A DNA stretch of 64,000 nt from Escherichia coli (lineage in GTDB: Bacteria; Pseudomonadota; Gammaproteobacteria; Enterobacterales; Enterobacteriaceae), in assembly GCF_003334405.1 (NCBI RefSeq), contig NZ_QOWM01000011.1. One strand, given 5' to 3'. Shown one piece after another: positions 30,236 through 30,479 of the stretch. Position numbers and translations under genes: made by a program. How positions within the stretch are numbered: the first letter of the stretch is position 1; each line of letters begins with the position of its first letter. Under the pieces are notes generated by a model. It ran no database searches and had not been told where the DNA came from. It was given only the letters and a program-made list of their open reading frames with translations.

Positions 30236-30479
30236 ATTTCCTTCGTCTTTCACGCCATAGCGGCGTTGGCGTCGCCCGCTCACCCCGGTCACTTACTTGT
30301 GTAAGCTCCCGGGGATTCACAGGCTAGCCGCCTTGCTCTGACGCGAAATACTTCGGAAATTCACCTAATTCTTCGGGTGCTGCGGCACCCGATTTTCTTC
30401 CCCGCACCATGATGCAAGCTGCATCCAGGTAGCCGCAGAGGCCGCTTGCATGATGATGTTTAAAGCCCAGGAGATAAAC

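Follow-up and report, generated by a model that had tools for sequence, protein, structure and literature searches.

The ahpC-ahpF spacer of Escherichia coli is probably a composite of an ERIC repeat, an intrinsic terminator and an RNase III-processed hairpin

How can two neighbouring genes deliver unequal amounts of two partner proteins, and what could the structured DNA between them contribute? E. coli relies chiefly on AhpCF to scavenge low-level hydrogen peroxide, and AhpC is needed in large excess over the reductase AhpF. Their genes stand side by side in the window (the whole 64,000-nucleotide stretch of DNA that was analysed), where the gene order is dsbG (-), ahpC (+), ahpF (+), uspG (-):

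29672-30235, + strand: ahpC coding sequence, 187 aa (from the ORF list; identical to b0605 of NC_000913.3)
30470-30474, + strand: Shine-Dalgarno (SD) sequence of ahpF, GGAGA/AGGAG (read from the sequence)
30480-32045, + strand: ahpF coding sequence, 521 aa (from the ORF list; b0606, NP_415139.2)

The ahpC stop codon TAA (30233-30235) and the ahpF ATG (30480) enclose a spacer of 244 bp (30236-30479), exactly as the initial annotation had it, and this spacer is identical to that of E. coli K-12 MG1655 (MG1655 coordinate minus window coordinate = 609273). The annotation had described a GC-rich inverted repeat and a longer imperfect palindrome within it, and had proposed that these either set the ahpC:ahpF ratio by partial termination or RNA processing, or represent a REP-like insertion. 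Our analysis suggests that the spacer is a composite of three unrelated modules, namely an ERIC repeat, an intrinsic terminator and a hairpin cut by RNase III, a reading to which we assign a probability of about 0.8. The structures are real and functional, and they are nothing categorically new, all three parts being already in the literature. Full-text searches for ahpC/ahpF with ERIC, 'monocistronic' or Rend-seq found no further literature, and the accessible part of the supplement to Adams et al. (2021) holds no entry on the ahpC-ahpF spacer.

The spacers on the outer sides of the two genes carry RNA features of their own. Between dsbG and ahpC, positions 29434-29527 (+) match the Rfam family STnc70, an enterobacterial sRNA, with 42.7 bits (gathering threshold 40); the match ends in a hairpin and T-run, and its 3' end agrees with one mapped by Term-seq in published data at MG1655 638796 (window 29523), which precedes ahpC by 149 nt. 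A small transcript thus seems to head for the OxyR-regulated ahpC promoter. The convergent genes ahpF and uspG are separated by a GC-rich hairpin (AGCCGCCGGGG...CCTGGCGGCT; 32075-32112) with T-runs flanking it on both strands, and 3' ends are mapped at MG1655 641378/641381 for ahpF and 641385 for uspG; this hairpin looks like a shared bidirectional terminator of the two genes.

The GC-rich hairpin within the spacer is the intrinsic terminator of ahpC:

30373-30399, + strand: intrinsic terminator of ahpC (terminator scan, fold and covariation)
30397/30398 (MG1655 639670/639671), + strand: major 3' end of the ahpC mRNA (TRS atlas)

The inverted repeat GGGTGCTGCGGCACCC noted earlier lies exactly at 30375-30390, inside a stem TCGGGTGC/GCACCCGA (30373-30392) that comprises eight perfect pairs (six of them GC) around the loop TGCG and is directly followed by the U-tract TTTTCTT (30393-30399). 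Its predicted folding energy is -16.6 kcal/mol, a value matched by none of 200 shuffled sequences, and one dominant structure makes up 84% of the ensemble. RNA folding, which had been put forward as a check, gave z = -4.6 for this terminator and z = -2.2 for the longer hairpin discussed below. Among 81 Enterobacteriaceae sequences, 99.1% of the cells of the stem are paired and five of seven pairs show compensatory changes, for example from CG to UA in 26 sequences. The terminator was found in all 97 loci examined, which belong to several families, and is thus conserved across Enterobacterales; the same terminator occurs in Erwiniaceae, Pectobacteriaceae and Gibbsiella. By genus, it is shared by Mixta, Pantoea, Dickeya, Lonsdalea, Sodalis, Gibbsiella, Izhakiella, Jejubacter and a Buttiauxella-like strain, in many cases down to the stem sequence. 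Most of these non-E. coli spacers are only 68-108 bp long (177 bp in Jejubacter), with the ahpF SD placed almost directly after the terminator, and even families with a spacer of 68-79 bp still carry it. A covariance search of Rfam over 30373-30460, run to E = 10, returned only chance-level snoRNA and Mu-gpT fragments.

Published 3' ends agree with this assignment. The TRS atlas (PMC10687069) reports a terminus at MG1655 639665-639678, dominant at 639670/639671, which ranks 191 among the tested positions with a signal of 0.99, a quantity that is not a termination efficiency, and the atlas draws this terminus with the very same hairpin. The dominant position corresponds to window 30397/30398 and falls within the U-tract, so that the termination half of the proposed 'partial termination or RNA processing' is substantiated by a mapped 3' end (PMC10687069). 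Termination at 30373-30399 is presumably partial, because ahpF is expressed and is co-annotated as an operon with ahpC.

Downstream of the terminator lies the longer palindrome, here called hairpin 2:

30404-30459, + strand: hairpin 2, a long imperfect stem-loop (inverted repeats, fold, conservation and covariation)
30422 (MG1655 639695), + strand: RNase III cleavage position in the 5' arm of hairpin 2 (PMC5371410)
30446-30461, + strand: most conserved block, TTGCATGATGA-Y-GTTT, formed by the 3' arm and tail (column counts)

The two segments previously noted, CATGATGCAAGC (30408-30419) and GCTTGCATGATG (30444-30455), proved to be the arms of this larger hairpin, whose ends lie at 30404/30405 and 30458/30459. 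It has about 20 pairs, in keeping with the two or so helical turns, internal mismatches tolerated, of an RNase III substrate; eight of the pairs are contiguous (30412-30419/30444-30451), and the stem is interrupted by a G.G mismatch (30411/30452), by further mismatches and by a loosely paired tip. Gordon, Cameron and Pfleger (mBio 2017, PMC5371410) listed a new, rnc-dependent RNase III site at MG1655 639695, 'intergenic (ahpC-ahpF)', which places the cut at C30422, a base predicted to pair with G30441. The cleavage stabilises ahpC, as the half-life of its mRNA was about 14 min in the wild type and about 6 min in an rnc mutant, while the stability of ahpF was unchanged (PMC5371410). The processing half of the earlier proposal is therefore borne out as well, in the form of an rnc-dependent cut in the long hairpin that alters the ahpC half-life (PMC5371410). 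Cleavage was also obtained in vitro, on a template equivalent to window 30162-30921 that includes the ERIC hairpin and with a cut not localised to hairpin 2, and the authors suggested a relevance to subunit stoichiometry (PMC5371410). RNase III may cut the 3' arm too, near 30442/30443, in a staggered position opposite 30422; in that event, the invariant GCUUGCAUGAUGA would form the first bases of the ahpF fragment.

Taken alone, hairpin 2 folds only marginally above chance (-23.0 kcal/mol; 4 of 200 shuffles as good). That it is real follows from its conservation in 83 genomes and from covariation rather than from folding energy. The same fold was predicted in 81 of 81 core genomes, in which GCATGATGA (30448-30456) is invariant. 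Counted by column, 10 of 13 positions are invariant in the 3' arm, 6 of 12 in the 5' arm and 0 of 21 in the apical part; at four-fold degenerate ahpF sites the count is 1 of 42, far below that of the two arms. The core genomes are nearly devoid of covariation, and changes in the 5' arm remain uncompensated (T to C, n = 6; G to T, n = 9). The two most distant carriers of hairpin 2 supply it: L091, whose AhpF is 89% identical, has one pair changed from G:C to A:U, and L095 (Enterobacteriaceae bacterium ESL0689) has four pairs with compensatory changes. With both included, 5 of 14 pairs have changed on both sides and 93.5% of the cells are paired, and none of 500 shuffles reaches 5 of 14. Since both arms change together in L091 and L095, pairing is the selected property, as would be expected for a double-strand-specific nuclease. 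Hairpin 2 was not found in any of the non-Enterobacteriaceae spacers examined and is therefore a lineage-specific addition between the older terminator and the SD of ahpF, whose GGA core is kept in 79 of 81 genomes.

The conservation of one arm could also be read as a sequence-specific role beyond pairing, by which 30446-30461 would serve as an ahpF leader element, as an AUG-rich decoy or mini-ORF, or as a site for a protein or sRNA. The imbalance between the arms (10/13 against 6/12, with 1/42 at four-fold sites) and the uncompensated 5' arm changes in the 81 core genomes speak for it, as does an AGG that precedes the AUG triplet by 8 nt in about 70 of the 81 genomes; a staggered cut opposite 30422, if it occurs, would moreover expose GCUUGCAUGAUGA at the start of the ahpF fragment. 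However, the 3' arm of L091 and L095 changes together with the 5' arm, so that it is pairing that is conserved, and families lacking hairpin 2 make do with a plain SD for ahpF expression. The frame and length of the mini-ORF are likewise unconserved, the outcome being MMMF-stop, MMTF-stop, an out-of-frame run-on or, in Escherichia, a fusion to ahpF. We regard such a role as doubtful. Its extreme form, in which the 3' arm is conserved solely as primary sequence, was suggested by the 81 core genomes and is weakened by the compensation in L091 and L095. Candidate sRNA complementarity and a palindromic protein-binding site (ATGCAAgTTGCAT) at hairpin 2 amount to short matches.

The ATG triplet ATGATGATG in the region 30450-30479 has a practical consequence of its own. 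It is in frame with ahpF only in Escherichia, where TTT replaces the TTTT found elsewhere, and the ORF lister accordingly begins ahpF at the in-frame ATG 30450 instead of 30480. Because of these in-frame ATGs, automatic gene callers give an AhpF of 531 aa (cluster P0002, 12,604 members) as opposed to the curated 521 aa. The same ATGs yield MMMF-stop or MMTF-stop, or run out of frame, in other genera. A conserved mini-ORF or leader peptide at ATGATGATG was rejected, as the frame, the stop and the upstream AGG all vary between genera.

In another explanation, hairpin 2 would chiefly act on ahpF transcription as a condition-dependent gate, either a second terminator or an attenuator, with cleavage by RNase III as a secondary clean-up of the kind that was proposed for the hisL and pheM attenuators (PMC5371410). 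In most genera the stem is indeed followed by GTTTT(T/A), with 4-6 T, and the 5' arm could form a small alternative hairpin by itself (30406-30416/30420-30430). EPEC E2348/69, which carries the 170-bp spacer allele (locus L098), contributes a mapped 3' end in the TRS atlas at NC_011601:570458, classed there as premature and within the ahpF 5' UTR, with a readthrough that differs by 0.21 between LB and DMEM (PMC10687069). This end is position 259 of L098; its window equivalent, 30452, is the 3'-arm G of the conserved G.G mismatch in hairpin 2. Against an attenuator, the base of the stem is AU-rich and contains that mismatch, only three T follow it in E. coli, the K-12 atlas has no 3' end at or after 30459 (PMC10687069), and the EPEC end is not in a U-tract but 6 nt within the stem. 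Neither a leader peptide nor a ligand-binding fold is evident, and no Rfam family matches. Gating by attenuation thus seems quite unlikely to be the main function of hairpin 2. The EPEC end coincides with neither the terminator U-tract nor the RNase III cut expected opposite 30422, and it makes an attenuator-like role, or a further one in processing, conceivable. One might go further and picture hairpin 2 as an Enterobacteriaceae-specific regulatory module between the ancient terminator and the ahpF SD, whose 3' arm and tail (TTGCAUGAUGAYGUUU) would form a processed ahpF leader that controls translation or decay, possibly in a condition-dependent manner, while the strain-variable ERIC upstream might modulate the amount of transcript that reaches the module. 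Condition dependence would fit the medium-dependent EPEC 3' end; we nevertheless consider this extended picture speculative and quite improbable.

If the terminator is as strong as its signal of 0.99 might suggest, another source of ahpF mRNA would be demanded, and ahpF could then be transcribed mainly from a promoter of its own in the spacer, hairpin 2 being a structure of its 5' UTR. Regulatory databases reportedly list a separate ahpF promoter, which counts in favour of this possibility. Yet a scan of the spacer (30236-30479) for the sigma-70 promoter, based on its consensus only, found no such site, and spacers of 68-79 bp leave no room for a promoter between terminator and SD. The effect of RNase III on the ahpC half-life, furthermore, needs transcripts that span both ahpC and hairpin 2. 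A predominant ahpF promoter in the spacer is therefore judged very unlikely, and readthrough of the terminator is probably the main source of ahpF mRNA.

The remaining suggestion of the initial annotation, a REP-like insertion, failed for both of the hairpins to which it was applied, which are single-copy and conserved across genera, and turned out to be right only for the 5' half of the spacer, which the annotation had not flagged. The largest palindrome of the spacer, absent from that annotation, is a 127-bp element:

30235-30361, strand not assigned: ERIC/IRU repeat, a 127-bp imperfect palindrome (inverted arms, dispersed copies and alignment)
30277-30320, - strand: central ERIC core matching the ERIC1R/ERIC2 primer consensus (pattern search)
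30318 (MG1655 639591), + strand: weaker mapped 3' end inside the ERIC (TRS atlas, signal 0.50)

It is this ERIC, not the flagged hairpins, that makes up most of the spacer length. It adjoins the ahpC stop codon directly and therefore sits in the ahpC 3' UTR, with outer arms of 27 nt at 30235-30261/30335-30361 (74% complementary), inner arms at 30283-30296/30301-30314 and ends AATTTCC/GGAAATT that form 7-bp terminal inverted repeats; size and terminal features agree with those given for ERIC/IRU elements in a review (PMC2229807). The 44-nt degenerate ERIC consensus fits the minus strand at 30277-30320 without a mismatch, where 0 chance matches are expected. The consensus used is that of the ERIC1R/ERIC2 primer sequences. 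ERIC copies were found in all 5426 complete E. coli genomes, at 41233 places in total and a median of 8 detectable per genome, and those between rpsB and tsf and downstream of ybiT can be aligned end to end with the one between ahpC and ahpF. With regard to the TA target-site duplication of ERIC/IRU elements, the flanks of the element are the TA of the TAA stop on the left and CA on the right, and those of the empty-site allele differ, so that the junction is not reconstructable. As RNA, the + strand, sense to ahpC, folds with -44.6 kcal/mol (z = -2.9) and the - strand with -67.4 kcal/mol (z = -8.6); the ahpC transcript thus contains the weaker-folding orientation. A permissive Rfam search gave weak matches to V_AS5 and CssrA that overlap the element, and both were rejected as RNA identities because the matches are simply the ERIC. 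The 3' end at MG1655 639591 (window 30318), with a signal of 0.50 in the TRS atlas (PMC10687069), falls 4 nt beyond the core hairpin, and exonuclease stalling or processing at that hairpin would fit it.

The element varies among strains. The full 244-bp spacer is present in about 1763 E. coli genomes, about a third of the complete ones, a 170-bp spacer with an internally deleted ERIC in 1946 and a 128-bp spacer without ERIC in 1114 (about 600 of the 5426 genomes were unclassified in this allele count). A short, internally deleted form of ERIC and its strain variability were reportedly described by Wilson and Sharp in 2006. Since most E. coli genomes are without a full copy, the ERIC is dispensable; in approximately two thirds of E. 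coli genomes the ahpC 3' UTR is unlike that of K-12, a point to bear in mind when expression data from K-12 are carried over to other strains. The insertion must be old, because a complete ERIC in identical orientation occupies this spacer in about 35 of 80 other Enterobacteriaceae species, which belong to many genera. A REP/BIME-like inverted pair takes its place in Enterobacter, K. pneumoniae and some Citrobacter (...GCCTGGCGGCGCTGCGCTTGCACAGGCCTAC...GTAGGCCGGGTAAACG...; loci L008, L028, L040-L043, L050, L052, L058, L075 and others, at about 914-1010), and the slot is empty in other lineages. All repeat insertions sit between the ahpC stop codon and the terminator, and the occurrence of different repeat families in one slot indicates that the ahpC 3' UTR upstream of the terminator is a recurrent landing site.

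Two individual loci stand out in this comparison. Phytobacter diazotrophicus (L025, 724-1100) has a 377-bp spacer with two tandem ERICs, one of each sequence sub-type (AATTCRC... and ATTTCCG... ends). The locus L061 (CACSKA010000002.1), titled Chryseobacterium sp. 18061, is an ahpCF locus of the Enterobacteriaceae type with ERIC, terminator and hairpin 2, and its AhpF is 94% identical to that of E. coli; this assembly is probably mislabelled or contaminated.

That the two flagged hairpins are themselves REP-like or other mobile-repeat insertions is effectively refuted: mobile repeats do occupy the spacer upstream of the terminator (ERIC here, REP/BIME-like pairs elsewhere), but each of 5422 E. 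coli genomes has a single copy of hairpin 2 (the whole spacer occurs at a median of one place), the terminator and hairpin 2 are kept at the orthologous position in at least 80 species, and neither matches the ERIC or REP consensus.

Under the composite reading, the three modules would act in sequence on the transcript. The ERIC, as an old and strain-variable insertion, would give the ahpC mRNA one more hairpin and a minor 3' end. Most transcripts from the ahpC promoter would end at the terminator, at about 30397/30398, and give rise to plentiful monocistronic ahpC mRNA with a stable hairpin at its 3' end. Transcripts that read through would enter hairpin 2 and be cut by RNase III at about 30422, which would part ahpC from ahpF, stabilise the ahpC portion and leave the ahpF portion with a short leader and its own SD. 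Termination and processing together could in this way uncouple the two cistrons in favour of AhpC over AhpF, and it is a reasonable inference that they set the AhpC:AhpF protein stoichiometry. What the present analysis adds is incremental: the frequencies of the ERIC alleles at the locus, a spacer slot filled with different repeats according to genus, and the confinement of hairpin 2 to Enterobacteriaceae together with its unusually strong sequence conservation and near-invariant 3' arm. Hairpin 2, being well conserved, could be put forward as a curated RNA family. The ERIC copy between ahpC and ahpF is not annotated in the RefSeq record of MG1655, and it could be added to this reference genome record along with the two RNA elements, which are absent there now as well.

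Each module has close counterparts among known systems. The repeat resembles the ERIC/IRU family in its 127-bp palindrome, central core, extragenic position in a co-transcribed 3' UTR, dispersed copies and strain-variable forms, with no essential difference; its local particulars are that it adjoins the ahpC stop codon and enters the mRNA in the weaker-folding orientation. REP/BIME elements, like the ERIC here, are palindromic and lie in 3' UTRs upstream of terminators, in other genera within the same slot, whereas the window has no REP at this spacer and neither flagged hairpin is repeated elsewhere or shows the REP consensus. The terminator is comparable to intrinsic terminators inside operons such as the rplL-rpoB attenuator, with the same GC-rich 8-bp stem, 4-nt loop and U-tract, and with a location between co-oriented genes of the same pathway, the upstream product of which is needed in excess; in contrast to operon-internal terminators, we know of no regulator or antiterminator for it. 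RNase III sites in the rplL-rpoB spacer and in the early mRNA of phage T7 are classical. Hairpin 2 shares with these intercistronic sites the stem of about 20 bp with internal mismatches, the position between cistrons, and an rnc-dependent cleavage that separates the cistrons and changes the stability of one product; it differs from them in the unusually high sequence conservation of one arm and in a range restricted to Enterobacteriaceae. The spacer thereby illustrates how one operon may deliver unequal amounts of two partners by means of a terminator and an RNase III site, and the textbook rplJL-rpoBC operon is laid out in the same way, with first a terminator and then an RNase III site separating cistrons whose products the cell requires at different levels.
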